IMG/VR virus record: IMGVR_UViG_3300047545_000041
Span: 1-60,036 of that record
Direction: 5' to 3' (one strand)
From: a virus
Taxonomy: Duplodnaviria; Caudoviricetes
Length of the DNA stretch: 60,036 bases
Both the position numbers and the translations under genes were made by a program. How positions within the stretch are numbered: the stretch's first letter is position 1; every line of letters begins with the position of its first letter. The notes beneath the pieces were generated by a model, which saw nothing but the letters and a program-made list of their open reading frames with translations, made no database searches and was not told the origin of the DNA. This document shows positions 4,760 through 50,730 of the stretch, piece after piece.

Positions 4760-5095
4760 ATGACAAAGAAACAAGCCACAGCGAAACGAAGTGAAGCCAC
4801 CGTTGCCGATGCCCTACACTTAGCCGCCGACAAATACCTTGCCGCCAATCATCAGCAGCGTGACCGTTGCCAATCTCGCTACAGTTGTGGTGCTGTTGGT
4901 AATGCCTGTGTTGAGTTGAACGTAAACTTCGGAGGTGTCCTTGTTGGTCTGAAGAACATGGGTTGTGACACAACGTCTAGTACGTTGTTTCATAAGTATG
5001 GCGACAACAACTTCAACATATCTGAAGAAGTGCAAGGCATGCGTTACATGTGGCTCAAATGGGCGGCGCTGATGGCTCAAGAACAAGGCGTGTGA
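4760..5095 (+). CDS. Hypothetical protein
   Basis: 111-aa ORF in operon with GAGG RBS. Confidence 0.65.
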   Translation: MTKKQATAKRSEATVADALHLAADKYLAANHQQRDRCQSRYSCGAVGNACVELNVNFGGVLVGLKNMGCDTTSSTLFHKYGDNNFNISEEVQGMRYMWLKWAALMAQEQGV

Positions 5096-7699: not shown

Positions 7700-8524
7700 A
7701 TGAATCAAAACAACGCTATCGGTATGTTCATGGGGCTGTTCATTGGTGATGCTCTTGGTGGGCCTCTTGAATTTACTGAGCCTAACACTGGCAACCCACT
7801 CAAGGACATGGTCGGTGGTGGTGTTCATGAGTTGGGTATTGCTGAGTGGACAGACGATGGTGCTATGGCAATGGCTATCGCTGATGCCTACCTGACATAC
7901 AAACGCTTTGCTCCCGGCATCATTGCACAGAACTTCAAACAGTGGAGAAACAATGGAACATTCGGCACTCGCAATTATTGTTTTGATATTGGAACTACTA
8001 CTGCTGAAGCGCTGAGTGCATCGTCCAACAAGCGTCCCTATGGTGGCTCTTGTGCATTGATGACAGACGGTAATGGGAGTGCCATGCGACTGGCTCCACA
8101 CATCCTGTTCAACCACAACAACAAGACAATGGCGATTGCTGAGTCTGTTGCTGGTGGCTTGCTCACTCACGGTACAGGTAAGTGTGTTGCTTACAGCGCT
8201 GCACTGGCTGAAGAGTTGTTCGATGGTGCAACTGTTGGCAACCAAGACCTGTTCGACAAAGGCATCAAGGAAGAGAGCGGCACAGTGATGGGTTGTTATG
8301 CATCGGCATGGCAGTCTGTTGCAGCTACATCGTCCTTCGAAGACGCTCTCATCCACGCTGTCAACAAAGGCGGTGACGCTGATACAGTTGGTGCTGTGAC
8401 AGGTATGATTGCTGGTCGTATCTATGGCTACGATGCCATCCCTCAACGATGGATTGATGCGCTGGTTGACCACGACAAGTTGTTGGCGACAGCAACTATG
8501 CTTTACAACATGGGTGACAAATGA
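7700..8524 (+). CDS. ADP-ribosylglycohydrolase (DraG/ARH family)
   Basis: GDALG, WTDDG, DIG.TT, GNGSAMR, GGDADTVGAVTG. Confidence 0.92.
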   Translation: MNQNNAIGMFMGLFIGDALGGPLEFTEPNTGNPLKDMVGGGVHELGIAEWTDDGAMAMAIADAYLTYKRFAPGIIAQNFKQWRNNGTFGTRNYCFDIGTTTAEALSASSNKRPYGGSCALMTDGNGSAMRLAPHILFNHNNKTMAIAESVAGGLLTHGTGKCVAYSAALAEELFDGATVGNQDLFDKGIKEESGTVMGCYASAWQSVAATSSFEDALIHAVNKGGDADTVGAVTGMIAGRIYGYDAIPQRWIDALVDHDKLLATATMLYNMGDK

Positions 8525-8937: not shown

Positions 8938-10017
8938 ATGAACAAAGACAAAGCACTCGACTTGGCGCTGGAGGCGTTGGAACACATGCTTGAAGACGCT
9001 AAACAAGAGCGTTTGACTGTGGAATATTGGAATGAGTGTGTTGACGCCATCACCGCGATCAAGCAAGCCCGTGCCCTCGACAAGAAGGCAGAGAACGCCA
9101 GAGAGTTGGGGCTGGACTATGAGCCTGTGCAGGAGCCTGTGGCGTGGCGCACTTTTGACGGTGAAGGTGGATATGACTATCGCACCTACGAAATGAACGA
9201 GGGCTATGCCAAAGAATGGAACGAGCGCAACCCAAAGCATAAGGGTTGGGTTGAACCCCTCTACACCACCCCACCCGCACAACCAGCACCTGCGCAGGAG
9301 CCTGTGAAACTGCGTCGAGGCGATGTCTTGCGGTGCATTGAGACTGATGAGCTTTGCACTGTGTGGGCTACATCTACTACCCACAAGACATTGGTTAAGT
9401 GGGGCGGCAACGACTTCTCCGATTACACAGCAGAGCAAATTGGCGAACTGTTTTGGCTTGAGCCTGAATCCAGTGACGTTGAAATTGCGGCAGAGCAATC
9501 TGACAACTACGCCGCCTTCCACGCTGGCGTTAGGTTTGCAAGAGCGCATTCGTTTACAACGCCGAAACAAGAAGAAGTTGAAATTGACTGGCCTGATTAC
9601 CACGAACAAGGCATGGGTTGCGGACTTGAAGATCGAGGCATCACAGACCGCTATGAAGCGATGCGCTACGGGTGGGACGAAGCCTTGGATAAGGCGGTGG
9701 AGTCTGTGAATCTGCTTGGCCCTCTCTACACCATCCCACCCGCAGCACCTGTGCAGGAGCCTGTGGCGTGGATGTTGCCGGGCACAGATTCGTTTCTTAC
9801 TGCGGCATCAAAGACGCACCACGGAGTTAGGGCTGAGTCTTATACGACACCCCTCTACACCACCCCACCCGCAGCACCTGTGCCCGACTACGCTTGGCCC
9901 ACCGTTGCCGACTACGAAAAAGACGTGGGCTTTGAAGTCAATGAAGCCTTCAAGATGGCTTGGGTGATGGCACGAACAACCAACGATTTGTTTACACAGA
10001 TGGGGAAGAACACATGA
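8938..10017 (+). CDS. Modular EPVAW/PLY-repeat protein (Eaa/Ead-like mosaic accessory protein)
   Basis: Repeated PLYTTPPAAPVQEPVAW linkers separating unrelated segments; GGAG RBS. Confidence 0.7.
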   Translation: MNKDKALDLALEALEHMLEDAKQERLTVEYWNECVDAITAIKQARALDKKAENARELGLDYEPVQEPVAWRTFDGEGGYDYRTYEMNEGYAKEWNERNPKHKGWVEPLYTTPPAQPAPAQEPVKLRRGDVLRCIETDELCTVWATSTTHKTLVKWGGNDFSDYTAEQIGELFWLEPESSDVEIAAEQSDNYAAFHAGVRFARAHSFTTPKQEEVEIDWPDYHEQGMGCGLEDRGITDRYEAMRYGWDEALDKAVESVNLLGPLYTIPPAAPVQEPVAWMLPGTDSFLTAASKTHHGVRAESYTTPLYTTPPAAPVPDYAWPTVADYEKDVGFEVNEAFKMAWVMARTTNDLFTQMGKNT

Positions 10018-11102: not shown

Positions 11103-11248
11103 CAATCGAACACATCATTGTCGGTGCTACTGGCGTAGGCTATGCCATCGTTGGTGTGCTGCAATGGAGCAAGGGTGAACTAAGTAACGGTATGATCTGG
11201 ACAGGTTATGCCTTCGCACAAATTGGACTATGGATGAATATCAAATGA
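11099..11248 (+). CDS. 49-aa membrane peptide (not in the ORF track)
   Basis: MTIEHIIVGATGVGYAIVGVLQW...; overlapping stop/start on both sides. Confidence 0.55.
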   Translation: MTIEHIIVGATGVGYAIVGVLQWSKGELSNGMIWTGYAFAQIGLWMNIK

Positions 11249-13920: not shown

Positions 13921-14390
13921 AAGCAATCATTGGCCCCTATCCAGACGATGACACAAAGCGTGTTGAAACCATCCTCCTTGATCCCTACGACACATGGAAC
14001 ATGGACCACACCTTAGCCCTCATCATTGTGCCCATGCTCAAGCAGTTGAAGGCTACGAAGCATGGTGCTCCGTGTGTTGATGACGAGTATGTGCCAGAAC
14101 ATCTTCGCTCTACAGCAGCAGCACCTAAAGAGAATGAGTGGGACACTGACACCAACCATTTCAAACGATGGGACTATGTCATTGATGAAATGATTTGGGC
14201 AATGGAACAGATTGTCGCTCATGACAACGAAGCCCAGTTCTATGACATGTCTGAGGTAGATGAAGAAACTGACATCCAATCACAACTCGATGCCATCAAG
14301 TGTGACTACGCTGCTCTTCAGAAACATCACGAACGTATCGCCAACGGCACTAAGCTATTCGGAATCTTTTTCAGCAGCCTCTGGGATTGA
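13917..14390 (+). CDS. Conserved phage hypothetical protein
   Basis: DTWNMDHTLA, WDYVIDEMIWA, LWD end. Confidence 0.75.
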   Translation: MKAIIGPYPDDDTKRVETILLDPYDTWNMDHTLALIIVPMLKQLKATKHGAPCVDDEYVPEHLRSTAAAPKENEWDTDTNHFKRWDYVIDEMIWAMEQIVAHDNEAQFYDMSEVDEETDIQSQLDAIKCDYAALQKHHERIANGTKLFGIFFSSLWD

Positions 14391-15092
14391 CTTGCAGTTA
14401 TCCATGTGCCATCTTTTCATGTTTGAAAATTGACCAACTTTATTACAGTGAGGGCAGGTTAGTTGTTTGGAATTTAAGGCGTGTACGTGGAGTGCCGCCT
14501 TATGTTCTTCAGAAAATTGTTTTGATCTACCTTTGTTCGCGTCACTGATTCTTTTTTTAGTTTCATTTGATAACGATCTTGTACCGTTGTCTTTGTAAAA
14601 AGTCTTGAGTGATTCGCTTAGTTTTTTCTTTCTATCGTCCGTCCACTTCTTTCCCTTAACTGCATTTCTTTGGTTGATCTTTGACTCCTCCGTTCTTTTG
14701 ATTCCATACGCTGGATGATTTTCACCCCTGATGTGTTCTTTACATTCTTTCATTAGTGTGTCATATGCTTTTGATGTAATGCGTTTATACCGCTTACTGT
14801 AAGGATCACCATGAATCATCACATGAAATGCGTAAGACATTTTTTTATTCCTATATGCCTTCCAAAGCATATAGTGAGCAATGTAATGAAGGCGAGGTGT
14901 AAGATGTACCATGTTTGATTGATCGTTACTACCACCCATACTTTTAGGAACAATGTGATGTTGTTCGGTATACCCTGTTACATTGATTGATAGTGCATGT
15001 TGAATTAGTCTGATGTACCTATTGATCATTGTTGTAGACTTGACGTCGAGCGCGTACAATTGACCTATCCAGTTTTGATCTTGTGTTTTCAT
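14355..15092 (-). CDS. HNH homing endonuclease with NUMOD3-like repeats, antisense to the operon (true start may be ~15029)
   Basis: EQHHIVPKSMGGSND..N.V.LTPR.H; GENHPAYG, SEEHK; CPHC; AT-rich. Confidence 0.85.
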   Translation of the reverse strand: MKTQDQNWIGQLYALDVKSTTMINRYIRLIQHALSINVTGYTEQHHIVPKSMGGSNDQSNMVHLTPRLHYIAHYMLWKAYRNKKMSYAFHVMIHGDPYSKRYKRITSKAYDTLMKECKEHIRGENHPAYGIKRTEESKINQRNAVKGKKWTDDRKKKLSESLKTFYKDNGTRSLSNETKKRISDANKGRSKQFSEEHKAALHVHALNSKQLTCPHCNKVGQFSNMKRWHMDNCKSIPEAAEKDSE

Positions 15093-15178
15093 GATAAAGT
15101 TATATCATACTTTATGGGATACAAGACAAACAGGCGACAGCAATATGCTGTAAATTTATACAACACAGAAAGACAACC

Positions 15179-20031: not shown

Positions 20032-20377
20032 GATTACACTCACCTTTGTTGCCGAGGTAGACAACTCAGAACTTGACAGCATCTACACACATGAAGACTT
20101 GCTTGTTGAAGACTTGAAAGAACATGTGGTGTATGCATTGTCTCGACTGAACATCGAAGACGTTTGTTTCAGGAACGTAGACGTAGAAGGACTGACATGA
20201 AGCTAACAATTACACCAGCAGAGAACGGGTTTGTTGTTGACGTTGAAGAACACGAAGACAGTCATTACTACTTCGTTGCTCTTGACGTTGCTGATGTATG
20301 TGGCATCATCGAGAACATCTTGGTTGACACCAATGACCAACTCGACATGACCAACATAGCGTTTGAGGCAGTACCTA

Positions 20378-20761
20378 GTGACCGTTAAAGAACGCAATGG
20401 TGGTGAGTGGACAGAGGCACGATTCAGAAGCTTCGTGACCTCTGCCTTACGTGCTGCGTCAAGGCGTTGGCCTCCTAAGTACAAGGCTTTGAAGGAAGCT
20501 TTTGCGGGTAGGAAGGTGAATGCTAAGACGGGTAAGCTGGCAATGCATTACAAGTGCGCTGAATGCTCTGAACATTTCGTAGCCACAGACGTTCAAGTTG
20601 ATCACATCCATCCTGTTGTAGACCCTAAGAAGGGTTTCACTACATGGGACAACTTCATTGAGCGTATGTTCTGTGAGATAAAGAATCTTCAGGTGCTATG
20701 TAAGCCTTGCCATAAAATCAAAACTGATCAAGAGAAACTTGAAAGGAAAAAGAAAGTATGA
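20378..20761 (+). CDS. HNH endonuclease
   Basis: CAEC...QVDHIHP...NLQVLCKPCH..KT. Confidence 0.85.
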   Translation: MTVKERNGGEWTEARFRSFVTSALRAASRRWPPKYKALKEAFAGRKVNAKTGKLAMHYKCAECSEHFVATDVQVDHIHPVVDPKKGFTTWDNFIERMFCEIKNLQVLCKPCHKIKTDQEKLERKKKV

Positions 20762-21663
20762 GCTTCCTAAAATATCAACACCTTGAACGCTACGGTAACA
20801 CCGAAGTGGAAGGCATTGAAGTAGGTACATGCTATGTGTTCCCTAAACTGGACGGTACTAACGGTAGTGTCTGGTTTGATGGATCAAAACCTATGGGTGA
20901 GAAGTTTTGTTGTGGTAGTCGCAACCGTGAACTGTCACCTGACAACGACAACGCTGGTTTCATGAAGGCTATGATGGACGACAGTGCTGTTGTGCCTTAC
21001 ATCTATGATAATCCTGATCATATACTGTACGGTGAATGGCTTGTGCCGCATACACTGAAGACCTACAACGACGATGCATGGCGCAAGTTCTATGTGTTCG
21101 ATGTGTTTGATCGCAAGAAAGAACGACTGCTTAGTTATGACGAATACTCTGAGGGCTTGGTTGCTGCTGGTATCAACGTTATTGCCCCTATTGCCATCAT
21201 CAAGAACGGCAGCATCGACCACTTCACTGAGTGTCTTAGCAAGGCACATTACTTGGTGAAGGATGGTGAAGGCAGTGGTGAAGGAATCGTGGTGAAAAAC
21301 TACGACTATCGCAATAAATATGGCAGACAAACTTGGGCCAAACTCGTGACTAATGAGTTCAAGGCTAAGCACCATCTTGAAATGGGTGCTCCCACTGTTG
21401 GTTGTGAAGTGGTTGAAGAGAAAGCAGTGTCAAAGTTCGTAACAAAAGCACTAGTCGATAAGGTCGTTGCTAAGATCACAAACGATATGGATGGCTGGTC
21501 GTCAAAGTATATTGCTAGACTACTACACACGGTCTACTACGACTTAGTTACTGAAGAGATGTGGCAGATAGTAAAAGACTTCAAGAATCCGAAGATTGAC
21601 TTCAAAAGTTTGTCTCATTACACAACCGCTAAGGTCAAAGAGTTGCGTCCTGATTTGTTTTGA
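20758..21663 (+). CDS. ATP-dependent RNA ligase (Rnl2-like)
   Basis: KLDGTN, SRNR, YGEW, FYVFD, EGIVVK, WAK. Confidence 0.8.
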   Translation: MSFLKYQHLERYGNTEVEGIEVGTCYVFPKLDGTNGSVWFDGSKPMGEKFCCGSRNRELSPDNDNAGFMKAMMDDSAVVPYIYDNPDHILYGEWLVPHTLKTYNDDAWRKFYVFDVFDRKKERLLSYDEYSEGLVAAGINVIAPIAIIKNGSIDHFTECLSKAHYLVKDGEGSGEGIVVKNYDYRNKYGRQTWAKLVTNEFKAKHHLEMGAPTVGCEVVEEKAVSKFVTKALVDKVVAKITNDMDGWSSKYIARLLHTVYYDLVTEEMWQIVKDFKNPKIDFKSLSHYTTAKVKELRPDLF

Positions 21664-21671
21664 TATATAAC

Positions 21672-21799
21672 TACAGACATACCGTTGTTGCTAGACCCTT
21701 CTAACGGTATGCAGTGAAGCCTGAAGAGGCTACCAATGTACAGTGATGTGCAACGACATACGGTCTAGGTGTGTTGGGTAGTCTCCTCAGGCTTTTTTG
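21672..21799 (+). ncRNA. Putative kissing-loop structured RNA upstream of an HNH gene
   Basis: Two long stems with complementary loops CTAGACC/GGTCTAG; upstream TTGCGT-17-TATAAC; ends in a T run. Confidence 0.5.
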
Positions 21800-21814
21800 T
21801 TTACCGGAAAATAT

Positions 21815-22420
21815 ATGTTGACAAAGGTATGTACGAAGTGTGATGTTGAGAAAACTATTGATTGTTTCAGTAAAGCTAAGTTTGGTAAGAATGGTACATC
21901 GGCAACATGTAAAGCATGCTACGCGACATATCGTTCAGTAAATAAACAAAACATTGCTGAAAAGAAAAAGATTTATTACTTAAACAACAAAGAGTCATTG
22001 TCTTCTCAGAAGAAAATTGTGTATGTATTGAACAAGGAAAAAATAACAAGTCGTAACAAAAAGTGGAGAGACAATAACAAAGAAGCTATCTCAGCATACA
22101 ATCAATTACACAAACAAGAATTGGCGAGGAAAAGAAAAGAATACAAAAAAAATAACAAAGCAAAATATTTCGCACATGAAGCTCGAAGAAGGGCTGGTAC
22201 AGCTAACGCCACGCCTTCTTGGGTTGATAAAGATGCTATTGTTGGCATGTATCAACTTGCTTCCGCATTTAACCGCACGGGCATTAACTTACACGTAGAC
22301 CATATTGTTCCTTTGAATAGCGACAAAGTCTGTGGTCTACATTGCGAAGCCAATCTTCAGTTGTTGCCAGCAAGCGACAACATCTCCAAAGGCAACCGCT
22401 GGTGGCCTGACATGTGGTAA
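21815..22420 (+). CDS. Zn-finger plus HNH homing endonuclease
   Basis: CTKC..CKAC; basic repeats; HVDHIVPL...GLH..NLQ...N..K.N. Confidence 0.88.
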   Translation: MLTKVCTKCDVEKTIDCFSKAKFGKNGTSATCKACYATYRSVNKQNIAEKKKIYYLNNKESLSSQKKIVYVLNKEKITSRNKKWRDNNKEAISAYNQLHKQELARKRKEYKKNNKAKYFAHEARRRAGTANATPSWVDKDAIVGMYQLASAFNRTGINLHVDHIVPLNSDKVCGLHCEANLQLLPASDNISKGNRWWPDMW

Positions 22421-22617
22421 ACTTAATTTCCCTTAACCTAACCGAAGGAATTGTTCTAATGAGCTTCTTAAGTGTCTTAACTCTCATCTTCATTGTGTTG
22501 AAGCTGACGGAATTCATCGACTGGTCTTGGTGGTTTGTACTGGCACCAACGCTGGTTCAGGCTGTTGCAATGATCAGCACAATCATTGGTCTTGTTGTTT
22601 TTGCAGCGAGGAAGAAA

Positions 22618-22796
22618 TGAAAATTGAACTTGAAAACTACAGAGAAAACGAAGACGGTTCTGCCGACTTCAATGTCAGCATGGACGAAGCAGCTAAAGAG
22701 TTTCTGCTACGCTATGCTCTTATCGCTTGCATCACCGATGCTATCGAAGCTGGTAAAGCAGCTACACCAACAACAGAGGAAACAAAATGTACGTAA
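22618..22796 (+). CDS. Small hypothetical protein (ENEDGSA)
   Basis: GAGG RBS; motif. Confidence 0.55.
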
Positions 22797-23110: not shown

Positions 23111-23186
23111 GTGATATAACTCCACCCCCACCCACACCCAAGGAGCTTCGGCTCCTTTCTTTTCCACTAAACCAAGGCAATATAGA

Positions 23187-24962
23187 ATGAAATATAAAGT
23201 TGACATCGACCTATCACGAGACAATCTTTTCGATGAACTAGGTAAGCAACGACTCAAAGAAAGCTACATGAAAGATGACGAAGTATCTCCGCAAGAAAGA
23301 TTCGCATTCGTATCAGCATCGTTTGCAAGCAACCAAGAACATGCTCAGCGACTATATGAATACTCTAGTAAGCACTGGCTCAGCTATTCTACTCCTGTCC
23401 TATCTTTTGGTCGTTCTAAGCGCGGGTTGCCTATTAGCTGTTTTCTTAACTATATGGATGATAGTGCAGAAGGCTTGGTCGATAATCTTTCAGAGACTAA
23501 CTGGCTCTCGATGATGGGTGGTGGTGTCGGTGTTCACGTTGGTATTCGTAACAGCGATGACAAGTCCACTGGTGTTATGCCTCACTTGAAAATCTATGAC
23601 GCTAGTTCATTGGCCTACCGTCAGGGACGTACACGCCGTGGTAGCTATGCTGCCTATCTCGACATTCACCATCCCGACATCATCCAGTTCTTGGAGATGC
23701 GTAAGCCCACTGGTGATCAGAACGTGCGTACACTGAACCTGCACCACGGCATCAACATCACTGACGAGTTCATGAACATCATTGAACGATGCATGAAGGA
23801 TGACAATGCTGACGACAGCTTCAACCTGATCAACCCTTCCAATGGTAGTGTTGTTGAGACAGTGTCGGCTAAGTATTTGTGGCAGAAAATACTGGACCTG
23901 CGTATGCAGACTGGTGAACCCTACCTCATCTACATCGACACAGCTAACAAGGCTTTACCATCTTGGTTGAAAGACAAAGACCTGAAGATTAACGGTAGCA
24001 ATCTCTGCACTGAAATCTTCTTGCCAACAAACGAGAACCGTACAGCAGTGTGCTGCTTGTCTTCACTGAACTTGGAATACTATGACGAATGGAAAAGCAA
24101 CAAGCAGTTTATCCTTGATGTTATGGAGATGTTGGATAACGTGTTGCAATACTTTATCGACAACGCTCCAGACTCTATTGCCCGTGCTCGTGCTAGTGCC
24201 ATGATGGAAAGAAGCATTGGTATTGGTACACTAGGCTTCCATGCTTTCCTGCAAAAGAAAGGTGTTGCCATTGATGGTGTGATGGCTAAGAGTTACAACA
24301 ATGAAATCTTCAAACACATTTATAACCAGTGCGTTATTGGCGATGCAATCTTGGTTACGTCACGAGGTGAATGCCCTGACGCGCATCTCAGTGGTGTTCG
24401 TCGTCGCTTCAGCCATTGGACTGCTATTGCACCTAACGCCAGCAGCAGCTTGATTATGGGCAACACCAGCCCCTCTGTTGAGCCATACCGTGCTAACGTA
24501 TTCCGTCAAGACACATTGTCTGGTGCGTTCGTGTACAAGAATCGTTTCCTCAAAGCTGAGCTTGAGAAGCTTGGTATGGACGATGACGACACATGGGCAT
24601 CCATCATTGCCAACGATGGGTCGGTGCAGCACTTGGACATCCCTGAACAACTCAAGGAAGTGTACAAGACAGCGATGGAGATTGATCAGCGATGGTTGAT
24701 TGAGCTTGCAGCAGATCGTCAGAAGTACATTGATCAGGGACAATCGATCAACCTGTTCTTCCCTGCTAACGTGTCTGTGAAGTATCTGCATAGCGTTCAC
24801 TTTTTAGCATGGCGTAGTGGACTCAAGAGTCTGTACTATCTGCGTAGTGAGAAGGTGCGTAAGGCTGACAAGGTTGGTGCTCAGATTAAGCGTCAACGCA
24901 TTGAAGATGAAATTGATTTGAAACAAATTGCAGATGGTGACACCTGCTTAGCTTGCGAATAA
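23187..24962 (+). CDS. nrdA: Ribonucleotide reductase class I alpha subunit
   Basis: PISCF, SNLCTEI, IAPNASSS, LKSLYY, C-terminal CLAC. Confidence 0.95.
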   Translation: MKYKVDIDLSRDNLFDELGKQRLKESYMKDDEVSPQERFAFVSASFASNQEHAQRLYEYSSKHWLSYSTPVLSFGRSKRGLPISCFLNYMDDSAEGLVDNLSETNWLSMMGGGVGVHVGIRNSDDKSTGVMPHLKIYDASSLAYRQGRTRRGSYAAYLDIHHPDIIQFLEMRKPTGDQNVRTLNLHHGINITDEFMNIIERCMKDDNADDSFNLINPSNGSVVETVSAKYLWQKILDLRMQTGEPYLIYIDTANKALPSWLKDKDLKINGSNLCTEIFLPTNENRTAVCCLSSLNLEYYDEWKSNKQFILDVMEMLDNVLQYFIDNAPDSIARARASAMMERSIGIGTLGFHAFLQKKGVAIDGVMAKSYNNEIFKHIYNQCVIGDAILVTSRGECPDAHLSGVRRRFSHWTAIAPNASSSLIMGNTSPSVEPYRANVFRQDTLSGAFVYKNRFLKAELEKLGMDDDDTWASIIANDGSVQHLDIPEQLKEVYKTAMEIDQRWLIELAADRQKYIDQGQSINLFFPANVSVKYLHSVHFLAWRSGLKSLYYLRSEKVRKADKVGAQIKRQRIEDEIDLKQIADGDTCLACE

Positions 24963-28922: not shown

Positions 28923-31900
28923 TTATCGACGACTTGCGAGGCCACCCTTTGCCAGCTTTGGAATCATCTTTGTCACCTCATCCAACGGTTTAGTACGCTT
29001 AGCTTCATCAACCGCTGTGGAGATTGCAGGTTCCGACTGTTGAAACTTCTTCAACTTGTCGCTGAGTTCATACAGATTCTGTGCTTTCTGTTTGGCTCCA
29101 CCATCCCACAAAATATCACCGACCTCTCGCATCTGACGTTGAATACCTGAGTAGTCTGCGAAGAAGTTGATGGCAGCTTGATATTGTTGACCAAGACCAG
29201 TCTTAGTTGATGTCGCCTTACCCATACCGATGTAGCTATTCATCAAGTCTTTGATGCCGCTATACGACATGTATGCCATCTTCATTCGCTCTTTAGGATC
29301 GTTAGATTGACGAGCAGTTTTCATATACTCTGAAATAAGCTCTTCATCTTTTTTCACTTCAGCACGAACAACATCTTTACCGCCAGCTTGAAGAACATTA
29401 GATACATCTGTCTCGGCACTACGCAGCTTGGCGTTTCTACCTTTGACACGAAGCTTCTCAGCCTCCAACATCATGTCTTCAGTTTCCAAGAAACCAGCAC
29501 GAGGTAGACCGATTGGACGAACAACACCGGGTGCGCCAGTGACAGCGCGAAGGATAGTGTTCATGTCTTTCTTGTCATATTTCTCAGGAGCCATGTTGAT
29601 TTTGTTGAACACATAATCAGCGTATGGAATTTCAGTGACAACATAGTTCTTAGGATCGGTGCCACCAAATCTGGAACTTCTTAAACCAAGGTTCAAGTCT
29701 CTAGTAAATGATGGAGCACCAACCAACATTTCATCATGAGTTTCACTTCGTTTTGTTGGGTCAATAAAGCCTGACTGTTTTATACCTTCAATACCTCTAC
29801 TACCACCTTGACCGTGGAACAGTTTCACAGGTGGTACATCCTTGTACTTCTCACGCAAAACATCAAGGCGCTTCTGATATTGACCAGCCAACTTCACAGC
29901 GTCAGCAAGCATCTCAGGGTCTTTAGGATTGAGTTCAACACCACGAGAATATCGATAGTCACCCAACACCACACCCAACACATCATCATCCACCGATGCA
30001 AACTTGTCGTTGTTACGCAGTTTAAAGAAACTGTCTTCGCGTGTTTCCTTAATAGCAGCAACCGCATTGTTCCGTGCATTGGTATTGAAATTTCCTGTAA
30101 TGCTATTTACATCACCAGACAAATACTTAGGATCAACACCGTACTCATCAGCAACTGGTTCAGCCTTCTTGATGACAGCTTTACCACCGACACTGACAGG
30201 ATTACCGTCAATGTCATATTCAACTTCATCCACCAAAGACTCAGCAGCTTCATCAGTCTTCTTAGCGAATGGTTGTGGTGGCATCTCAGAATACTTCAAT
30301 CCTTTAGCTTGACCAGTGAAGCTATGCAGAGTGTTCTCATAGTCTTCAGGGTTGGCAATCTTCCAAGACTTCAACTGCTCAGGTGTATACAACTCCAGCA
30401 TAGCTTCTTCACCCATGACATAGTCTTCATCGGCAAAAGCTTTAGAAGGCGCAGGAGCCTCTATCGCCTGTACTGGTGGGGCAGGTAGGGCTTGCTCTGT
30501 TTGACTCAACGCAGGCGCTTCTGATGGGGTTGCTGTTGATTCAGGAAGCGTAGGCTTAGACTTTGCTGTAGTCTTAGGAAGCACAGGCTTCTTACCCATC
30601 AACATGTTTGCTGTCTGGTCGATGGCGGGAGATGTTGCAGGCTTAGACAGTTCTTTGTCAACAATGTCGTTAATAATTGAGTCATCAATTGTCTCAGGCT
30701 TAGCTACCTTCAGCCTTTTAGCTGTGTCCAATACAGACTCAGTAGCGCCACCAATAAGTTTCTTACCAACAACCTTAGACGCTGCCAATCCACCAAGAGC
30801 GTAAGCAGGAACAAGACCACCTTGAGCAAACTCTAGATCAGCCATCATAGCCTTATATTTATCAATGGCTCTATAGTCTTTGGCTTCTTCTAAAGTTTTA
30901 CCATCGTTGTCTTTGGCGTAACGGCTGTTAATAATCTTACGTTGTCTTTCAGGTAGCTTATTAAACTCCATCTTTTTAATACGCAACATATCTTCAGACA
31001 TGAATGTTGCTTCTGTTCTGTCACGAGCAATGTCTGTAACTTTTCTTACAGCGTTTGTCAACTTCTCGATTTGTTCATTAGGTGAGAGTTGTTGATACCG
31101 TTTGTCATTAACTTGTTTCTCAACAGCTTGAATAACAGCAGGGTTAGCAACCTGAACGAATTTACGGTCATACTCACGATCACCGGATGATGGTCCATAC
31201 AGTTTGTATGGGTCAATACCAAGTCGTAAAATCTCTTTCTCAGCAACAGTCTTTGCTGGTGTCTCACGTACACCAACCAAGCTGTAGAAGAATTCACCTT
31301 CTTTATATACCGGACCTTCGCGTAAACGTGGAACAGCTTCAGGTAAAGACTCTTTGACAACTGGCAGCTTACCCTGTACACGATTAACAGCAGCCTCAAT
31401 GAAACGATCACCACTGCCTTCAGCGGTAATAACATTAGGATCACGCTGAACAGCACCTTGCTCACGGAACAAATCAAAGAATTCGTAAGCGCTCTTAAAC
31501 ACAAACGGTTGTGAGAAACGAGCAGTGAAGTCACCGAGAATCTTACCCGCAGCAACAGCAAAACCATCAGCATCCTTCTCAGAAGAGAATGCGTTGAAGA
31601 TTTTATCCATCAAATAGTTCTGAGTACCAGCAGGCAATTTCATACCTATGATAGCTTCTTGTGCATCCTTAAAGCTGGCATCAATACCAAGTTTTTGTTT
31701 AGCTAAAAAGTCAGCAACAATCAATGTCGGACCAAGTGGAAAAACACCACGCATGTCAACGGTACTTCCGTCTTCTTGCTTCATACTACCAGCATCAATG
31801 TCTTGGTTGTTCAAGCGATAATCATAGGCCGCTGCCAAGGCAGCAGTACCAACAACACCCTTGGCAATGTTTTCTTGACCTTTACGAATCATACCGTCAC

Positions 31901-34130
31901 CAGCACTTGAACCTGCTGCCTTCAACAAAGACCCTTGCAGCAAGTCTTCTATACCTGATGCTGCGCCGAAGACGCTATATCGATATTGGAAAGCAATAGC
32001 ATTAGACATGAATCGTGGGAATGGAGCAATTAAACTACCGCCCGGTCCTTCAGCAGCCTTGACAAATAAGTTGCCATACTTTTCTGCACCAGCCTCAAAA
32101 CCAACCACACCCTTCTTCGGCATCTTCGGTGTGTAGGAGAATGTAGCCTTCAATGTTTCATCAGTAGCTTGTTTCAAGATCGATGCGGGAATAGTCTTAC
32201 CTGCACCAATTGTTTCATACATGTCCAAACCAGCGCGGCGCATGTGTTTCTCAACAGCAGCGTTGAAGATGGCTTTGCGGAAGAAAGCATCCTGTGCCAC
32301 GTTCAAGATGTTGAATACCTGAGCAGCTTTAGAGATATTATCATTAACACCTTCTGTAGCGCTCAAAATGTTGTTACGCAATGCAGGGTTGTGCTGCAAC
32401 AATGTATCTGTCACTTCAGTAGACAACCCACCCTTTGCCATGTACCCGTACACACTGAACGCATCACTCATTGTGTCACCAAGACTACGCATGGCAGTGG
32501 TGAGTCGCTGACCTTTAGCTGCACCATCGAGAGTACGACCAACAGTGTACATCGCTCCTTCAATGAGTGAAGCAGCGGAATTGTATGTCAGACCAACACT
32601 AGTACCAAGCACGTTACGAACTGTGGTGCCGATACCAGAAACAATCCAAGCCTTAGACTCGCGTTCAACATTCACTATAACTTGACCAACACGGCCAAGC
32701 GCTGTCACTTGACTGTCTGGTTTGGCAAACAAAGCATCTACTTGCTTAGCAACCTCCGGATCAAGATTTGTCATTTTAGTCAACAGCTTAGACGCAGCAG
32801 AATATTGCTGCATAACCTGAGCAGCTTCTGTCACCGTCATCTTGTTTGCTTTAGCGAAGTCGTCTGGTGTCAAACCTTCCTTACGAATAGCCTGTTCCAG
32901 TACAACATCGTCTACATTGTCCAGATTGGAGAACACTTCGTTGATGGCAGAGCTAGTTTGTTGATTGGGTTTAAGACGGAACGTTGGGTCTTGCTCAATG
33001 ACGTGCATCGCTACACGAACAGCACGAGCGGACATGTCCTTTTGAATCTTTGAATCTGTCAAAGCTGTAGCGGGATTGACTTCGTCCAAGATGCGACGAC
33101 CTTCAATCTTGATGAAGTCTTCAACCACCTTGTCCATGTTCTCAGTGACAGGGTCAATCAAGATGCGCTCAGTCGATGTGACTGGTGCATTGGGATTGGT
33201 AGGCAGGGCTTGTTTCTTCTTCAAGATGTCAGTGAGTTGATCAGCACCGGACTTACCAGCGGGAACAGCCAATGTACCTTTAGCTTCAGCAAAGCCACCA
33301 ACAGAGCTAAACAAAGCAGCAACCGCCATTTGACCAGCATCAAGTTCAGCAGGCTGTTCACCAAGCGACTTAGCTACTTCTTGTTTCTTCTTTTGTTCGA
33401 TGACGTTCTGTCCAACACCGACGATGGCTTCTGTGCCTACAGTGGCAGTAGTGACAGCAGCAGGGGTAGCTTTAAGAATAGCAGATGTTGCAGCCTTTGT
33501 TGCTTCTTTAGCAATGAGCTTCTTACCTACAGCAGCAGTACCGAAACCAATGTAGTTGGTCAAGTCAGTGAGTGCAGACTTTGCAATGTCAACGAATGGT
33601 GCAGCACCGGGTTGACCACCTTTTTCCGTAGCATCTTTAACTTGATCAAACAAACGATTACCAAGTGCCAACTTCTCACGATCAGGCATTGATGAGTTCT
33701 TCAGCTTGTTGAGAGCAGCAATGTTAGAGAAAGTGTTCCACTCATTACCGCGCAACTCAGACATAAAAGAAGCAACGTATTGTTCTTTGTTCTGACCTTC
33801 TTTGTACTCTTTACCAGTGGCAACCTTGTTGTAGTCAGTAACAATCTTGAACAAGTCAGGATTGGTATAGAGTTCTTGGTAGTCAAACTTAGGTTTGTTA
33901 CGCTCTTCAATAGCAGCAGTCTGTACCTTCTTCAACTCTGTAGCACGTTGACGTGGTGCAGCCATAGCAGGCTTGGTCAAATCCACTTCAGGCTTTGCAG
34001 CCATGCGTTCAATTTGTTGTGGTGTTGGCGCTAGTGATGTATCACCTGTAACACTCTGTGACTTCAGCCATTCTTCTGGCGACAAAGGTGCAGCAGGTGT
34101 GGATTGTTTCAGCCATTCTTCTGGACTCAT
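28923..34130 (-). CDS. Large internal virion/ejection protein with possible C-terminal ADP-ribosyltransferase-like domain
   Basis: 1735 aa, last gene of the virion arm; PFPRF motif; KLFHG..GF..PSFT..E in the C-terminal third. Confidence 0.7.
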   Translation of the reverse strand: MSPEEWLKQSTPAAPLSPEEWLKSQSVTGDTSLAPTPQQIERMAAKPEVDLTKPAMAAPRQRATELKKVQTAAIEERNKPKFDYQELYTNPDLFKIVTDYNKVATGKEYKEGQNKEQYVASFMSELRGNEWNTFSNIAALNKLKNSSMPDREKLALGNRLFDQVKDATEKGGQPGAAPFVDIAKSALTDLTNYIGFGTAAVGKKLIAKEATKAATSAILKATPAAVTTATVGTEAIVGVGQNVIEQKKKQEVAKSLGEQPAELDAGQMAVAALFSSVGGFAEAKGTLAVPAGKSGADQLTDILKKKQALPTNPNAPVTSTERILIDPVTENMDKVVEDFIKIEGRRILDEVNPATALTDSKIQKDMSARAVRVAMHVIEQDPTFRLKPNQQTSSAINEVFSNLDNVDDVVLEQAIRKEGLTPDDFAKANKMTVTEAAQVMQQYSAASKLLTKMTNLDPEVAKQVDALFAKPDSQVTALGRVGQVIVNVERESKAWIVSGIGTTVRNVLGTSVGLTYNSAASLIEGAMYTVGRTLDGAAKGQRLTTAMRSLGDTMSDAFSVYGYMAKGGLSTEVTDTLLQHNPALRNNILSATEGVNDNISKAAQVFNILNVAQDAFFRKAIFNAAVEKHMRRAGLDMYETIGAGKTIPASILKQATDETLKATFSYTPKMPKKGVVGFEAGAEKYGNLFVKAAEGPGGSLIAPFPRFMSNAIAFQYRYSVFGAASGIEDLLQGSLLKAAGSSAGDGMIRKGQENIAKGVVGTAALAAAYDYRLNNQDIDAGSMKQEDGSTVDMRGVFPLGPTLIVADFLAKQKLGIDASFKDAQEAIIGMKLPAGTQNYLMDKIFNAFSSEKDADGFAVAAGKILGDFTARFSQPFVFKSAYEFFDLFREQGAVQRDPNVITAEGSGDRFIEAAVNRVQGKLPVVKESLPEAVPRLREGPVYKEGEFFYSLVGVRETPAKTVAEKEILRLGIDPYKLYGPSSGDREYDRKFVQVANPAVIQAVEKQVNDKRYQQLSPNEQIEKLTNAVRKVTDIARDRTEATFMSEDMLRIKKMEFNKLPERQRKIINSRYAKDNDGKTLEEAKDYRAIDKYKAMMADLEFAQGGLVPAYALGGLAASKVVGKKLIGGATESVLDTAKRLKVAKPETIDDSIINDIVDKELSKPATSPAIDQTANMLMGKKPVLPKTTAKSKPTLPESTATPSEAPALSQTEQALPAPPVQAIEAPAPSKAFADEDYVMGEEAMLELYTPEQLKSWKIANPEDYENTLHSFTGQAKGLKYSEMPPQPFAKKTDEAAESLVDEVEYDIDGNPVSVGGKAVIKKAEPVADEYGVDPKYLSGDVNSITGNFNTNARNNAVAAIKETREDSFFKLRNNDKFASVDDDVLGVVLGDYRYSRGVELNPKDPEMLADAVKLAGQYQKRLDVLREKYKDVPPVKLFHGQGGSRGIEGIKQSGFIDPTKRSETHDEMLVGAPSFTRDLNLGLRSSRFGGTDPKNYVVTEIPYADYVFNKINMAPEKYDKKDMNTILRAVTGAPGVVRPIGLPRAGFLETEDMMLEAEKLRVKGRNAKLRSAETDVSNVLQAGGKDVVRAEVKKDEELISEYMKTARQSNDPKERMKMAYMSYSGIKDLMNSYIGMGKATSTKTGLGQQYQAAINFFADYSGIQRQMREVGDILWDGGAKQKAQNLYELSDKLKKFQQSEPAISTAVDEAKRTKPLDEVTKMIPKLAKGGLASRR

Positions 34131-41080: not shown

Positions 41081-43747
41081 TTAAATGTTTGCGGCTGCAA
41101 GTCGAGCACGGAGACTTTGGATTTCGGCCCACATTACAGGGATAAGGGCGCTTGCATCCATCTGCTGATACACAGGGTTGCCATCAGCATCAACAGCGTC
41201 TTTCTCACCAGTGTGTGCGTACTCAGGTGTTTCGTGAGCAATAAACATTGGGCGCTCTTGTGTAGCACCTTTCATCTTGCCCATGTAAACAGGCACAGAG
41301 TCAATCAATGCACCGCTGTCGGTCACGGGGCCAATGATGTCCTTGGCGCGGTAATCAGACGTTGTGTTGTACGCAGTAAGACCTGCGCCTCGGTTGTATG
41401 TAATTGTGCCTCTAGTGGCAAATGAAGCCTCAGTACCAAACGCCATAAACACGTTTGTCCCGCTGGTGGCTTGGTTATGAATTACTGCGCCAAAATAATC
41501 GACCGTTGGAACGGTAATATTTATTCCGTTTTGCGTCCCCCCTGCGGTGATGTTTACTCGTGCCGAACCGCCTGTTTGTCCAACCTGCAAGTTACCGCTG
41601 GAGTCGATACGGGCCTTCTCAGATGCCGCAGAAATTGCGCTGCTTGTCGTGCTGATATTGCCAAACACAATTGCGCCATCGTATGTGGTGCGGATCGTCC
41701 CAAACGAACTTTGGTTGCTTCCGTTGGCGTTAGAGCGGAATGCCAGCATTGGGCTGTCAAAAGCCGCGCCAGTGTAGGTCTGAGTCAACAGAACATAACG
41801 CTCTGAAGTAGGAGTGGTTGAACCTACACGGAACTCAGTGTTAGCCTCAGTCGTTGATGGATACGACTCAGTGGACACCACAAGTTTTGAGCCAAGGCCC
41901 GGAGAAGATGTAGTGTTGATGAGGAGGCTGCCGCTGGAAGTGATGCGGGCACGTTCGCCGTCTCCAGTAGAGAAGACCAAGTTCCTTGCGGTGTTTGTAG
42001 AGTCAACAGCGTTCAGCTCAACTTTGTCGTTCTCTGTCAGGTTGACTTCAAGGCGTGTTGCTGTTTGACCGCCGATGGTGAAGTTACCGCTGGAGTCGAT
42101 ACGGGCGCGTTCGGTTGACCCCGTGCCAAAAGCAAGAACGCCAGTAGCAGATGAGAAAGTGGTTACACCGCTAACACACTTAATATAAGAATCAGCAGTC
42201 GCTCCGTCAGTAAAGTAGGCAACGTTACCGTCTGTACGAAGAAGGTTTAAGCGGTACGGCGATGTGGTTGTCGTACCAACCCCCAAATTCCCACTCGCAT
42301 CCAGCGTCATCGCCTGAGTAAAGCTAATGGCGTTACCTGCTGTGCCGGAGGGGGCGCGATACCAATAAAAAGCACCAGTATCTGCGGCAAACATTGTTGC
42401 CGCGCCGTTGGCTTTATAAAGGTAAGAACTTCCGTTGTAGTAGAAGTTTTGACCAAACTGCATGTTCCCTGTGTTGGTACTCCACAGAACGCCGCCATTG
42501 AGATCAATAGCTTTGCCAGCTCCCCAAGCACTCGGAGTAACCCCCAAGCCGAGGTTGCCGGAGGAGTTCAGTTGTAGTTTGTCACTGCCAGAAGTCCCGA
42601 CAATAAAGTTGCCGCTTGAGTCGCCGTACAGGTAGTTGTTCGTTGCGCCAATGTTGATTCGACCGTTGGAACCGTTCACCACGTTTACAGTGCCAGCAAC
42701 ATCCAGCTTATAAGCAGGCGAACTCGTCCCAATACCCAGACCTGTGCTGGTCAGGCGCATTTGTTCGGAGCCGCCAATCAACCAGCGAGCAATTGCGCCG
42801 TGAGACATTTGAACGCCGTTGACGTTGTTAGATGCGCCAAAGTCGTACCAACCGCCATTGTTGGTAATTGTTCCGATAACTGTCCCGGCCGTGTTGCCCT
42901 GCCAAATGTCGCCATCAATAGCAGCTTTGTATCCAGACACAGGAGAAAGACCAACACCAAAATTCGTCCCATCAAACGTCAGCGCAGACCCAGTGGTCAG
43001 GACTTTGGAGCCGTTGAGGTAGGCCACTCCGTTGGCTGTGCCGCCGTTCAATGTCACTGTGCTGGATGTTGTCAAAGCTTCAGCAGTAATGGTGCCAGTC
43101 AATGTAGGCGAAGCCGACATCACCACGTTGCCTGTACCAGTGATGGCGTTGCTTACAAGCCCTTTAGAGCCGTCAGAGAACACAGCACGAGAAGCTGTCA
43201 ACGAAGACACAATAGGTTGCGCTGTAAATGTAGCAACACCTGTAACACCCAATGTACCGGAAAGTGTAGCGTTCTCACCACCGATAGTGCCAGTGAGTGT
43301 TGGTGAAGCCGACATAACAACGTTGCCTGTGCCAGTAATTGCATTACTAACCAACCCTTTAGAACCATCGGTGAACACAGCGCGGCTGGCTGTCAACGAA
43401 GACAAGATAGGTTGTGCTGTCAGGGTAGCCACACCAGTGACAGCCAAGGTGCCACCAATCGAAGCATTACCAGCCAAGAACAAGTCTTTGAACTTCAACG
43501 AGCTAGAGCCAATGTCAACAGTGTTGGTGGTCTTTGGTGTCACAGTGGATGCACCAACCACCACGTCCTGTGTTGGACCCAACACAAGAATGGGAGCGCC
43601 TTCACCAGTGGTGCCGTCATGGTTGTGACCAGTGGAGCTATTGAATGCTGCCTGAATACCATCGAACTCATTGTCGAGGTCGGTGGCGTTGATGATGTTG
43701 CCATCAGCAATGTTGTTAGTGGTGTCTGTACGGGTATAGCCTGCCAT
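41081..43747 (-). CDS. Tail fibre with C-terminal S74-like autocleaved chaperone
   Basis: N-terminal GH.HDG anchor; GIGT/ERARIDSSGN repeats; TSDYRAKD...FIAHE. Confidence 0.88.
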   Translation of the reverse strand: MAGYTRTDTTNNIADGNIINATDLDNEFDGIQAAFNSSTGHNHDGTTGEGAPILVLGPTQDVVVGASTVTPKTTNTVDIGSSSLKFKDLFLAGNASIGGTLAVTGVATLTAQPILSSLTASRAVFTDGSKGLVSNAITGTGNVVMSASPTLTGTIGGENATLSGTLGVTGVATFTAQPIVSSLTASRAVFSDGSKGLVSNAITGTGNVVMSASPTLTGTITAEALTTSSTVTLNGGTANGVAYLNGSKVLTTGSALTFDGTNFGVGLSPVSGYKAAIDGDIWQGNTAGTVIGTITNNGGWYDFGASNNVNGVQMSHGAIARWLIGGSEQMRLTSTGLGIGTSSPAYKLDVAGTVNVVNGSNGRINIGATNNYLYGDSSGNFIVGTSGSDKLQLNSSGNLGLGVTPSAWGAGKAIDLNGGVLWSTNTGNMQFGQNFYYNGSSYLYKANGAATMFAADTGAFYWYRAPSGTAGNAISFTQAMTLDASGNLGVGTTTTSPYRLNLLRTDGNVAYFTDGATADSYIKCVSGVTTFSSATGVLAFGTGSTERARIDSSGNFTIGGQTATRLEVNLTENDKVELNAVDSTNTARNLVFSTGDGERARITSSGSLLINTTSSPGLGSKLVVSTESYPSTTEANTEFRVGSTTPTSERYVLLTQTYTGAAFDSPMLAFRSNANGSNQSSFGTIRTTYDGAIVFGNISTTSSAISAASEKARIDSSGNLQVGQTGGSARVNITAGGTQNGINITVPTVDYFGAVIHNQATSGTNVFMAFGTEASFATRGTITYNRGAGLTAYNTTSDYRAKDIIGPVTDSGALIDSVPVYMGKMKGATQERPMFIAHETPEYAHTGEKDAVDADGNPVYQQMDASALIPVMWAEIQSLRARLAAANI

Positions 43748-50062: not shown

Positions 50063-50620
50063 CTAGGTTGTCTGCTTACTTACGTTATGCGTTACTAAAC
50101 GACAAAGCTCAATAAACACTTCTTCAGTGTAGTCAAGCTTCATCCTATTGATAGGAACACAGACCAATTGGATATTATCAACCGTATAGTCTTTGCTACT
50201 ATCTACTCTGTCTAGGCTTACTGTATTAAGTTGGTGGCCTTCGCTAGTCAGCGGCAACTTAGTGTAAGCACATAGACCTTCTTGTCTCTGCCAAACATCA
50301 TGAAGATGTTCAACAGTGATAAAACACTTCTTATTCTTTCGTTTATCAGCAGTCTTCACTAACTGATCAAACTTTTCATCAAGCGTCAGATTAGCATAAC
50401 GCTTCTGATTCTTAATTTTAATCTTTTCCTTGTTGTTGGTGCGGTACTGTTTGTCATAAGACAGTCGGTACTCCTTGTTCTTTTCTCTCCAAACTTTAAT
50501 GTTTGAATTGTTACAACTCTTACAACTAGATTTAATACCACTAGCTTTAGAGTTGTCTTTACCGAACTCACTAACACTCTTCTCAATCTTGCAACAACTG
50601 CAAGTCTTCATATCATTCAT
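50063..50620 (-). CDS. Zn-finger/HNH-like homing endonuclease between scaffold and capsid
   Basis: CSCC..CKSC; Q.G.CAYT; SLDRVDSSKDYT.DNIQLVC..IN.MK. Confidence 0.8.
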   Translation of the reverse strand: MNDMKTCSCCKIEKSVSEFGKDNSKASGIKSSCKSCNNSNIKVWREKNKEYRLSYDKQYRTNNKEKIKIKNQKRYANLTLDEKFDQLVKTADKRKNKKCFITVEHLHDVWQRQEGLCAYTKLPLTSEGHQLNTVSLDRVDSSKDYTVDNIQLVCVPINRMKLDYTEEVFIELCRLVTHNVSKQTT

Positions 50621-50727
50621 AACAATCCCCGATTAGATAAAGGACTAGGCCATGAATCGGCATGGTCAGGGGAGCTACCCTTTTCGTCCTATGTAAAGTT
50701 ATATCAGACTTTTTCAGCCCGTGTCAA
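50621..50727 (-). promoter_or_regulatory. Promoter plus structured pseudoknot leader of the endonuclease gene
   Basis: On - strand: TTGACA-18-TATAAC, a three-way junction, and loop CCGATT complementary to AATCGG at the RBS. Confidence 0.6.
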
Positions 50728-50730
50728 CTA

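Follow-up and report, generated by a model that had tools for sequence, protein, structure and literature searches.

The leader RNA and its cassette

The stretch of DNA analysed here (the window) is a complete phage genome of 60,036 bp from IMG/VR (record IMGVR_UViG_3300047545_000041; Duplodnaviria, Caudoviricetes) with 127-bp direct terminal repeats. Between an RNA ligase gene (PF09414), which is complete and has its own stop, and the gene of a 53-aa membrane protein (ATG 22459), it carries at 21646-22444 what is, judged from its sequence, a free-standing homing-endonuclease cassette placed between genes of the host phage. The cassette joins a promoter-like box, a folded RNA and an HNH nuclease gene (Table 1). 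The RNA folds on the strand of the nuclease gene, its paired positions covary, it is mobile as a unit with the gene behind it, and it is linked to two nuclease families. Based on these properties, we propose that it is a new type of leader that controls the expression of the nuclease in cis.

Each element named in the original prediction, which was made from the letters of the sequence, is present where it had been placed, including the box, two stems with complementary loops, a T run and the HNH start. The long second stem (P2) also exists, but it is not a simple stem-loop, as it closes a three-way junction with two further hairpins, P3 and P4. This junction spans 42 nt, unlike the loop of 3-8 nt of a simple terminator hairpin; P2 and P4 are joined without linker nucleotides, and the base of P2 (GCCTG/CAGGC) is GC-rich with the U-tract immediately 3' of it. 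The discrete RNA of ~125 nt, from the box to the U-run, that had been envisaged is geometrically plausible, while the product itself is predicted.

Table 1. Positions of the leader RNA, the nuclease gene and the insertion boundaries in the window (SD, Shine-Dalgarno sequence)
Feature	Position	Strand	Remark
Promoter-like box	TTGCGT 21643-21648, 17-nt spacer, TATAAC 21666-21671	+	read from the sequence
P0 5' arm CTACAGAC	21671-21678	+	weak in the window, stronger in most homologues; 83.7% of cells paired
P1 hairpin, 9 bp, 16-nt loop	CATACCGTT 21678-21686 with AACGGTATG 21703-21711	+	5/7 model pairs changed on both sides
L1 kissing sequence CTAGACC	21691-21697	+	pairs with 21762-21768
P2 rod, 19 bp, one A.C mismatch	21716-21734 with 21777-21795	+	98.6% of cells paired; 8 pairs changed on both sides
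P3 hairpin, GNRA tetraloop GUGA 21743-21746	21737-21752	+	GCAA or GUAA in homologues
P4 hairpin, 8 bp	21754-21776	+	8/8 pairs changed on both sides
L4, the entire 7-nt P4 loop, GGTCTAG	21762-21768	+	exact complement of L1 CTAGACC
U-run TTTTTTGTTT directly after P2	21793-21802	+	nearly invariant in 11 copies
P0 3' arm GTTTACCG, SD-like GGA 21806-21808, ATG 21815-21817	21799-21817	+	
HNH (His-Me finger, endonuclease-VII-like) homing-endonuclease gene, 201 aa	21815-22420	+	stop 22418-22420
3' spacer of the cassette	22421-22444	+	right boundary 22444/22445, from X12 and X3 contigs
Diverged copy of the RNA-ligase 3' tail, codes RPDLF, stop TGA 21661-21663	21646-21663	+	left insertion junction
Retained native ligase tail AAGGAATTGTTCTAATG, SD and ATG (22459) of the 53-aa membrane gene	22445-22461	+	identical to the relatives' junction

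Fold, covariation and strand

Positions 21664-21815 fold with a minimum free energy (MFE) of -60.9 kcal/mol (z -5.68; 0 of 200 shuffles were as good), and 21678-21817 reach a z of -6.01 against shuffles. Covariation was assessed in the 11-sequence model alignment, to which the pseudoknot was added, comparing its 53 pairs with 500 shuffles; the values are to be read with the caveats that the alignment is fitted to a covariance model and that the sequences are related to each other. Standard pairs occupy 91.7% of the cells (79.4 +/- 0.9 in the shuffles), 28 of the 53 pairs have changed on both sides (13.4 +/- 2.1), and the covariation score is 0.430 (0.186), with 0 of the 500 shuffles as high in any of these three measures. 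When the partners were slid by 1-3 columns, pairing fell to 32-42% and the both-side changes to 2-12. Changes on both sides affect all eight pairs of P4, 5/7 pairs of P1 and 8/19 pairs of P2, and P3 is nearly invariant.

The kissing loop behaves in the same way. Covariation of the loop-loop pairing was the test that the original prediction had set for itself, and it was observed: seven L1 variants (CTAGACC, CTCGAAC, CTGATAC, CTCGCAC, CTCGACC, CTGGAAC and CTCGTCC) are all complementary to their partner loops, and a perfect 7-mer complement was read directly in 11/11 copies, extending to 9 nt in the copy L221. In the alignment, the kissing loop appears 84.4% paired only because the rows of the copies L067 and L101a sit one column off in P4. 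G.U cells exceed A.C cells by 35 to 8 in the nested helices of an 8-sequence alignment, and the fold therefore belongs to the strand of the nuclease gene.

The MFE fold of the copy in the window instead pairs CGGUA, the 3' arm of P1, with UACCG beside the SD, which excludes P1 and the kissing loop; the MFE folds of the other copies did not show this alternative. Rfam 15 has no family for the window's copy or for four other copies, and no family reached the gathering score anywhere in the window. At E values up to 10, the region 21500-22600 returned nothing except two chance miRNA rows inside an open reading frame (ORF). A known riboswitch class likewise found no Rfam match.

Copies of the RNA and the nucleases behind them

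A metagenome protein search led to two 52%-identical HNH genes with a homologous leader, and was followed by searches with patterns and a covariance model (R1). In all, the RNA was found at 11 loci on 9 contigs, all of them from freshwater relatives of this phage and distributed over at least 5 different genome sites, with one copy in the window. Whole-record searches found it in 4 of 20 related records, and among near-complete genomes it is present in two of seven, the window counted. In each of the 11 copies, 6-10 nt separate the end of the RNA from the start of the nuclease ORF that follows. Ten of these ORFs are of the window type, while the eleventh, at L101a, codes for an unrelated HNH_3+AP2 protein (Pfam E 5.6e-20); a search for close relatives of this second nuclease returned that locus alone, and the link to a second family therefore rests on one locus. 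The RNA of L101a is almost the same as that of L067 and shares its kissing sequence, and at the site of L101a the locus L297 carries a window-type gene with another RNA variant, from which we conclude that RNA, nuclease and site are shuffled.

Two contigs hold two copies each (L101 at 4775-4911 and 8226-8362, and the contig with L216 and L308), and in both the kissing sequences of the two copies differ, being CTCGCAC and CTGATAC in one contig and CTCGCAC and CTCGTCC in the other.

Among 80 loci with homologues of the HNH gene (30-52% identity), only three have the RNA, and a second model, built from 11 sequences, detected no distant copies ahead of the 77 others. Within the window, the claim that three of four mobile-looking HNH genes have structured leaders did not hold, since the RNA is confined to the gene at 21815-22420 and the other leaders are at about the level of shuffles or form a 7-bp hairpin. 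The HNH gene at 50620 has an 86-nt leader with a z of -0.05, and the region before the HNH gene at 20363 is coding, with a z of -0.16.

Further searches added no copies. With 20700-22700 as the query against a phage collection, the search for near matches gave no match and that for distant ones gave 10 short HNH or ligase matches. No viral contig matched a strict two-arm pattern, and the pattern CAGGCTTYTTTGTTTW was too loose, with more than 115 matches; in 112 of these loci (L103-L214), the model gave only weak matches (18-24 bits, E 0.02-0.4) besides the known copy L100. Two pattern matches in genome contigs, a Tengunoibacter contig and a Marinimicrobium metagenome-assembled genome, had no model match and were taken as chance. 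The flank common to L100, L101b and L216 had no match in a search of the window; BLAST put that site near 11103-11240.

Insertion into the junction between the ligase and membrane-protein genes

A relative of the window's RNA ligase is encoded by 44 viral contigs, and the element (blastn), the HNH protein (tblastn) and a covariance-model match are absent from the ligase locus of all 44. The junctions were written out for 29 of these loci, 24 of which belong to close relatives, and in 24/24 of the latter the ligase stop overlaps the start of the next gene (TAATG or TGATG). The ligase tails of the relatives end in KKELF or KPELF, and the upstream copy in the window ends in RPDLF-stop. Since the native junction is kept at 22445-22461 and a diverged copy of the tail lies at 21646-21663, the insert comprises ~799 bp (21646-22444) with a duplicated target on both flanks. 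The empty site was found in contigs of X12 (an RNA library) and X3 (a DNA run of another study), which join the relatives' ligase tail to 22444/22445, and an X3 contig of 1,210 nt carries the cassette unchanged. Box, RNA and HNH gene are jointly missing from 44/44 ligase loci and jointly present at other sites, and thus form one unit, as had been proposed.

A second insertion is seen in L067, where a clean 780-bp cassette lies at window position 15806/15807, beside a diverged duplicate of the target. At both of these independent sites (window 21646-21663 and 22445-22461; L067 ~280-310 and 1069-1095), the tail of the upstream gene is kept on the 5' side, and the native tail with the SD of the next gene on the 3' side. 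Where genes overlap, an insertion between them is probably viable only with this target-duplicating layout.

Another DNA contig of X3 matches to the end of the HNH gene (22417) and then continues in unrelated sequence, so that sample holds a related nuclease gene in a different setting. Three RNA libraries also had contigs with parts of the HNH gene (X5, 21806-22054; X12, 22009-22226 and 22319-22469; X18, 21937-22169). None of the RNA-library contigs spans 21603-21803, and one X5 contig begins at 21806; with a depth of ~3, DNA possibly present and RNA ends not visible, we draw from these contigs no inference on transcription, ends or processing.

The nuclease protein

The 201-aa protein matches the endonuclease VII family phrog_1035 (E 5.7e-20). 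PF01844 (HNH) scores 17.3 bits on it, below the cut-off of 21.4, and no Pfam family was found at E 0.01. Nucleases of the window type start with MLTK or MITK, followed by a zinc-finger-like N-terminus, NK-rich repeats and a C-terminal HVDHIVPL...N...N, which is invariant among 4 aligned homologues and corresponds to the beta-beta-alpha-metal motif with its catalytic His and Asn.

The box, the start region and the putative masking helix

In all members with the upstream flank read, TATAMC lies directly 5' of the RNA. A related nine-mer, TGATATAAC, has three copies in the window, all ahead of a gene and in that gene's orientation, namely an HNH gene at 14355-15092 (-), an HNH-like gene at 50063-50620 (-) and nrdA, and good -35 hexamers are found at 17-18 nt from the box in two cases. 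The HNH-like gene (phrog_1035) is preceded by a perfect TTGACA, 18 nt and a TATAAC with a TG extension (50620-50730). At nrdA, a module at 23113-23189 (+) consists of TGATATAAC, a C-rich spacer, a hairpin (23140-23157), a U-run and a ribosome-binding site (RBS), with the ATG at 23187. This module was found at 11 of 35 relatives' loci (~1.6 expected by chance), its hairpin changes on both sides (GGAGC/GCTCC to GCAGC/GCTGC), and it may be a phage promoter plus a leader or attenuator. Considering these occurrences, we take the TATAAC box to be a putative phage promoter element. A T7-like promoter was also considered in ACTATAGAC, a 15-mer that does not recur in the window; a search of the genome with PF00940 gave no match, and as the control was equally silent, that search is uninformative.

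At 15085-15110, the homing-endonuclease (HNH) gene at 14355-15092 (-) (phrog_655) has the box and start region GTATGATATAAC-TTTATCATG, which forms a 7-bp hairpin over the AUG (z -1.81) and equals the box and start region of L100 minus the intervening 137 nt. The folded domain thus has the appearance of having been inserted into the loop of a T4-style control hairpin. This HNH gene would have a nearly leaderless mRNA if TATAAC is a -10 element.

In predicted folds of long transcripts, the box region pairs with the SD/AUG around the whole domain, the fold of L100 reaching -80.4 kcal/mol (z -7.84). The duplex between the box arm and the start arm amounts to -11 to -20 kcal/mol in 7/9 copies. In register, 80.2% of the cells of this putative masking helix pair, mostly through wobble-compatible one-sided changes.

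A proposed leader controlling nuclease expression in cis

With moderate confidence, we interpret the RNA as a new cis-acting leader that keeps the nuclease scarce and timed, which agrees with the attenuator or cis-switch reading already offered in the original prediction. That the promoter is used, that transcripts terminate, that the start is masked and what the kissing loop does are our inferences. The RNA always stands ahead of nuclease ORFs, which belong to two families, and the HNH gene at 14355-15092 shares the box and the start region but lacks the RNA; both observations argue for regulation in cis rather than for a protein partner.

In the scheme that we propose, the first ~150 nt of the cassette would form an independently folding leader on the nuclease strand, in the order TATAAC box, P1, P2 with its three-way junction, P3, P4 kissing the P1 loop, U-run and SD/AUG. 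A polymerase engaged at the box would start near 21677-21679, at the foot of P1, and the resulting ~125-nt leader would mostly end at P2 and the U-run (attenuation), in a layout that would be that of the box-hairpin-U-run module before nrdA. Read-through alone would yield nuclease mRNA, with its start site free. In transcripts of the upstream operon, the box region would pair with the SD/AUG (P0 and its extension), closing the domain and masking the start, and the kissing and GNRA loops would lock the domain into a compact form, bring the distant arms together and speed the formation of the rod.

Several points weigh against this interpretation. The positions at which transcripts start and end are predicted only, and neither a scan for sigma-70 consensus promoters nor a terminator scan lists a site here; the box is without the conserved last T of the sigma-70 -10 hexamer. 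A strong terminator within an operon would be polar on the downstream genes, and no conserved alternative (antiterminator) fold was found in the MFE folds. Regarding masking, the weak duplex of the window reaches only -8.6 kcal/mol and that of L101a only -4.7 kcal/mol, cognate and non-cognate arms pair about alike (-13.0 vs -11.0 kcal/mol) with no clear covariation, P0 has almost no both-side changes, and its 5' arm is replaced in L305. Besides, a 137-nt fold with kissing and GNRA loops far exceeds what RBS masking or termination needs, and the bare hairpin of the other HNH gene indicates that a simple version suffices. P2 and P3 are also conserved in sequence, beyond pairing, which hints at recognition by some factor.

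Alternative explanations

The rival explanations are considered in the order of our confidence in them, the last two being equal in this respect. A stand-alone, stable non-coding RNA of the phage, which would act in trans or assemble with itself by intermolecular L1-L4 kissing like the phi29 packaging RNA (pRNA), and would travel with homing endonucleases, appears unlikely to us. Box, fold and U-run form a discrete unit that would suit such an RNA, as would the compact fold with its GNRA loop, the conserved sequence of P2 and P3 and the kissing sequences that differ in both two-copy contigs; moreover, P4 continues P2 without a linker and, if the two helices are coaxial, L4 would face away from P1, favouring pairing between molecules. 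However, 11/11 copies sit 6-10 nt before a nuclease start codon, the RNA is missing in 5/7 near-complete related genomes and so is dispensable for the phage, and it has no conserved single-stranded segment free for a target. A more specific version, less likely again, is that the ~125-nt RNA of a new family would use programmable 7-nt loops to pair between molecules into a dimer or ring that has its own function, which likens it to phi29 pRNA and to the RNA-only assemblies ROOL and GOLLD. Such a dimer or ring would serve, for example, homing, protection of the cassette or RNA stability, and the differing loops of co-resident copies would then be specificity codes.

We consider it improbable that the element acts in RNA processing, either as a ribozyme that cleaves itself or as a site for RNase III or RNase E, and would so cut the nuclease mRNA from the operon transcript. 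The near-perfect 19-bp P2 would be a plausible RNase III substrate, with an invariant U-rich single strand 3' of the duplex. RNase E acts on seg and mobE transcripts, according to the part of PMC2988022 drawn on here, and the part of PMC2219692 drawn on here provides a precedent in the GIR1 ribozyme before the I-DirI gene. On the other side stand the few conserved unpaired nucleotides (AGU before P2, the GNRA loop and UUU), unlike in known ribozymes, and the lack of an Rfam match at E up to 10.

Even less probable in our view is a role at the level of DNA, in which the element would be a portable homology block, like the PeSL motifs of T4, that swaps nuclease genes between sites and phages. 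Near-identical RNAs with the same kissing sequence before different nucleases (L067 and L101a), as well as different combinations of RNA and nuclease at one site (L101a and L297), are what such a block would leave behind, but the compensatory changes, the 35:8 ratio of G.U to A.C and the covarying loop-loop pairing show that an RNA fold, and not DNA identity alone, is under selection. A DNA-level role can coexist with an RNA function.

That the HNH nuclease binds the RNA as a cofactor or guide, as in HEARO or IscB systems, is very improbable, and the RNA-associated or RNA-guided nuclease that had been suggested, as a speculation in its guided form, was not supported. Adjacency and co-mobility are all that speaks for it. 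The RNA stands before two unrelated nuclease families and is absent from 77/80 HNH-homologue loci, which argues against a nuclease-bound or guide RNA, and the only variable loops are taken up by pairing with one another, which leaves no free guide-like segment. The 201-aa protein has one sub-threshold Pfam match (HNH) and matches only endonuclease VII and HNH families in PHROG, and no match to HEARO or any other Rfam family was found for the RNA.

Equally improbable is an ordinary terminator of the ligase gene, for which the GC-rich stem base followed by a U-run would speak, or a chance structure: the relatives' junction has neither an intergenic region nor a terminator, so the element is not an ordinary terminator of the upstream gene, its 78-nt branched fold is absent from the terminator-scan list, and chance is contradicted by a z of about -6 and by covariation that includes the pseudoknot. 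A group I intron was rejected, with no Rfam Intron_gpI match, a complete ligase ORF with its own stop and 24 nt after the nuclease stop.

Other features of the phage genome

The genome codes for a family-B-type DNA polymerase, a primase/helicase, a ribonucleotide reductase, a terminase and a portal protein. Among cultured phages, Limnohabitans phage DC31 (52.5%) and Curvibacter phage P26059A (51.4%) are the closest by polymerase, and freshwater metagenome runs hold DNA near-identical to the window. No tRNA or tmRNA was found in the window. A 72-nt repeat is present in three copies on the plus strand (674-745, 1346-1417 and 2228-2299), each with a near-consensus promoter, TTGACA...TACAAT or CATAAT; these are probably early promoters. 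C-rich repeats (CCCCTCTACACCACCCCACCCGCA and similar CCACCCC runs) lie at 9256-9289, 9721-9754 and 9850-9883 and also at 18-38 and 23121-23139, and are thus spread over the left half of the genome, the terminal repeat and the nrdA leader. A 194-nt tandem duplication with 76% identity (43080-43468) lies inside a minus-strand ORF of the structural region, and a 1,734-aa ORF at 28923-34130 (-) has no PHROG match at E 1e-5.

Comparison with known systems

The RNA shares properties with several known phage and mobile-element RNAs. The pRNA of phi29, a phage RNA of ~120 nt, has a three-way junction and two loops that keep their complementarity by covarying between relatives. The leader RNA resembles it in size, in the three-way junction and in its two covarying complementary loops, but has no Rfam match, lies in a genome that is not phi29-like, is absent from most close relatives and is always the leader of a nuclease gene. 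In phage lambda, the 6S RNA of PR'-tR' is a leader with a promoter-proximal terminator that is read through by antitermination. The order of promoter, short structured RNA, U-run and genes is comparable, and nrdA likewise shows TGATATAAC, a hairpin, a U-run and an RBS; unlike in lambda, the hairpin here is branched and far larger, and no antiterminator gene or site was identified.

IscB proteins combine RuvC and HNH and have about 400 aa or more. As in HEARO and IscB omega-RNA, a structured RNA stands beside an HNH-containing gene on a mobile element in the cassette, but no RuvC or other IscB domains were detected in its nuclease, there is no guide-like free segment, and the RNA serves an HNH_3+AP2 enzyme too.

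Repeated promoter/stem-loop modules (PeSL) border shuffled genes in T4-like phages, as described in the part of PMC4122927 used for this comparison. There, the stem-loop is simple and precedes the promoter, whereas in the cassette the box stands ahead of the fold, and the RNA structure is itself selected (the PeSL side again from that part of PMC4122927).

The nuclease genes of T4 are nearest to the control that we propose. In the sections of PMC2988022 on which we rely, the SD of such genes is described as masked in upstream transcripts, with the promoter placed so that the genes' own transcripts escape masking, and terminators and RNase E sites lower the levels of nuclease transcripts. As reported there for I-TevI, I-TevII, I-TevIII, segB and Aeh1 mobE (PMC2988022, same sections), a helix in our element may mask the SD/AUG in upstream transcripts. 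In both cases, the 5' arm contains or adjoins a promoter-like box, so that the cassette's own transcripts would lack that arm. Unlike the plain hairpins of T4 type, as far as these sections describe them, the element holds in its loop a 137-nt domain with a three-way junction, a GNRA tetraloop, a 7-bp kissing loop and a U-run; unlike in those hairpins, masking is weak in the window's own copy.

No title or abstract in the literature searched describes such a leader. In the main text of a 2023 study (PMC10690425), 'HNH' and 'kissing' each occur 0 times and homing endonucleases are named only in a reference; its supplements, with more than 10,000 candidate viral structured RNAs, were outside our scope and may list the motif.

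Free-standing homing endonucleases need to be expressed without harm to the phage that carries them, which T4 is known to achieve with plain hairpins and borrowed promoters. The cassette described here brings along a complex leader whose tertiary fold is under selection and which is exchangeable between unrelated nucleases and insertion sites. If the RNA is a regulator, it would be a compact, portable module of expression control and a clean natural case of a covarying kissing loop; should it go beyond regulation, as a stable or self-assembling RNA or as a processing element, it would represent a new RNA class linked to selfish DNA. The covariance model is ready for annotating such cassettes in freshwater viromes. 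Overall, control of nuclease genes by their leaders is known, and what is new is a well-supported RNA family that realises such control.

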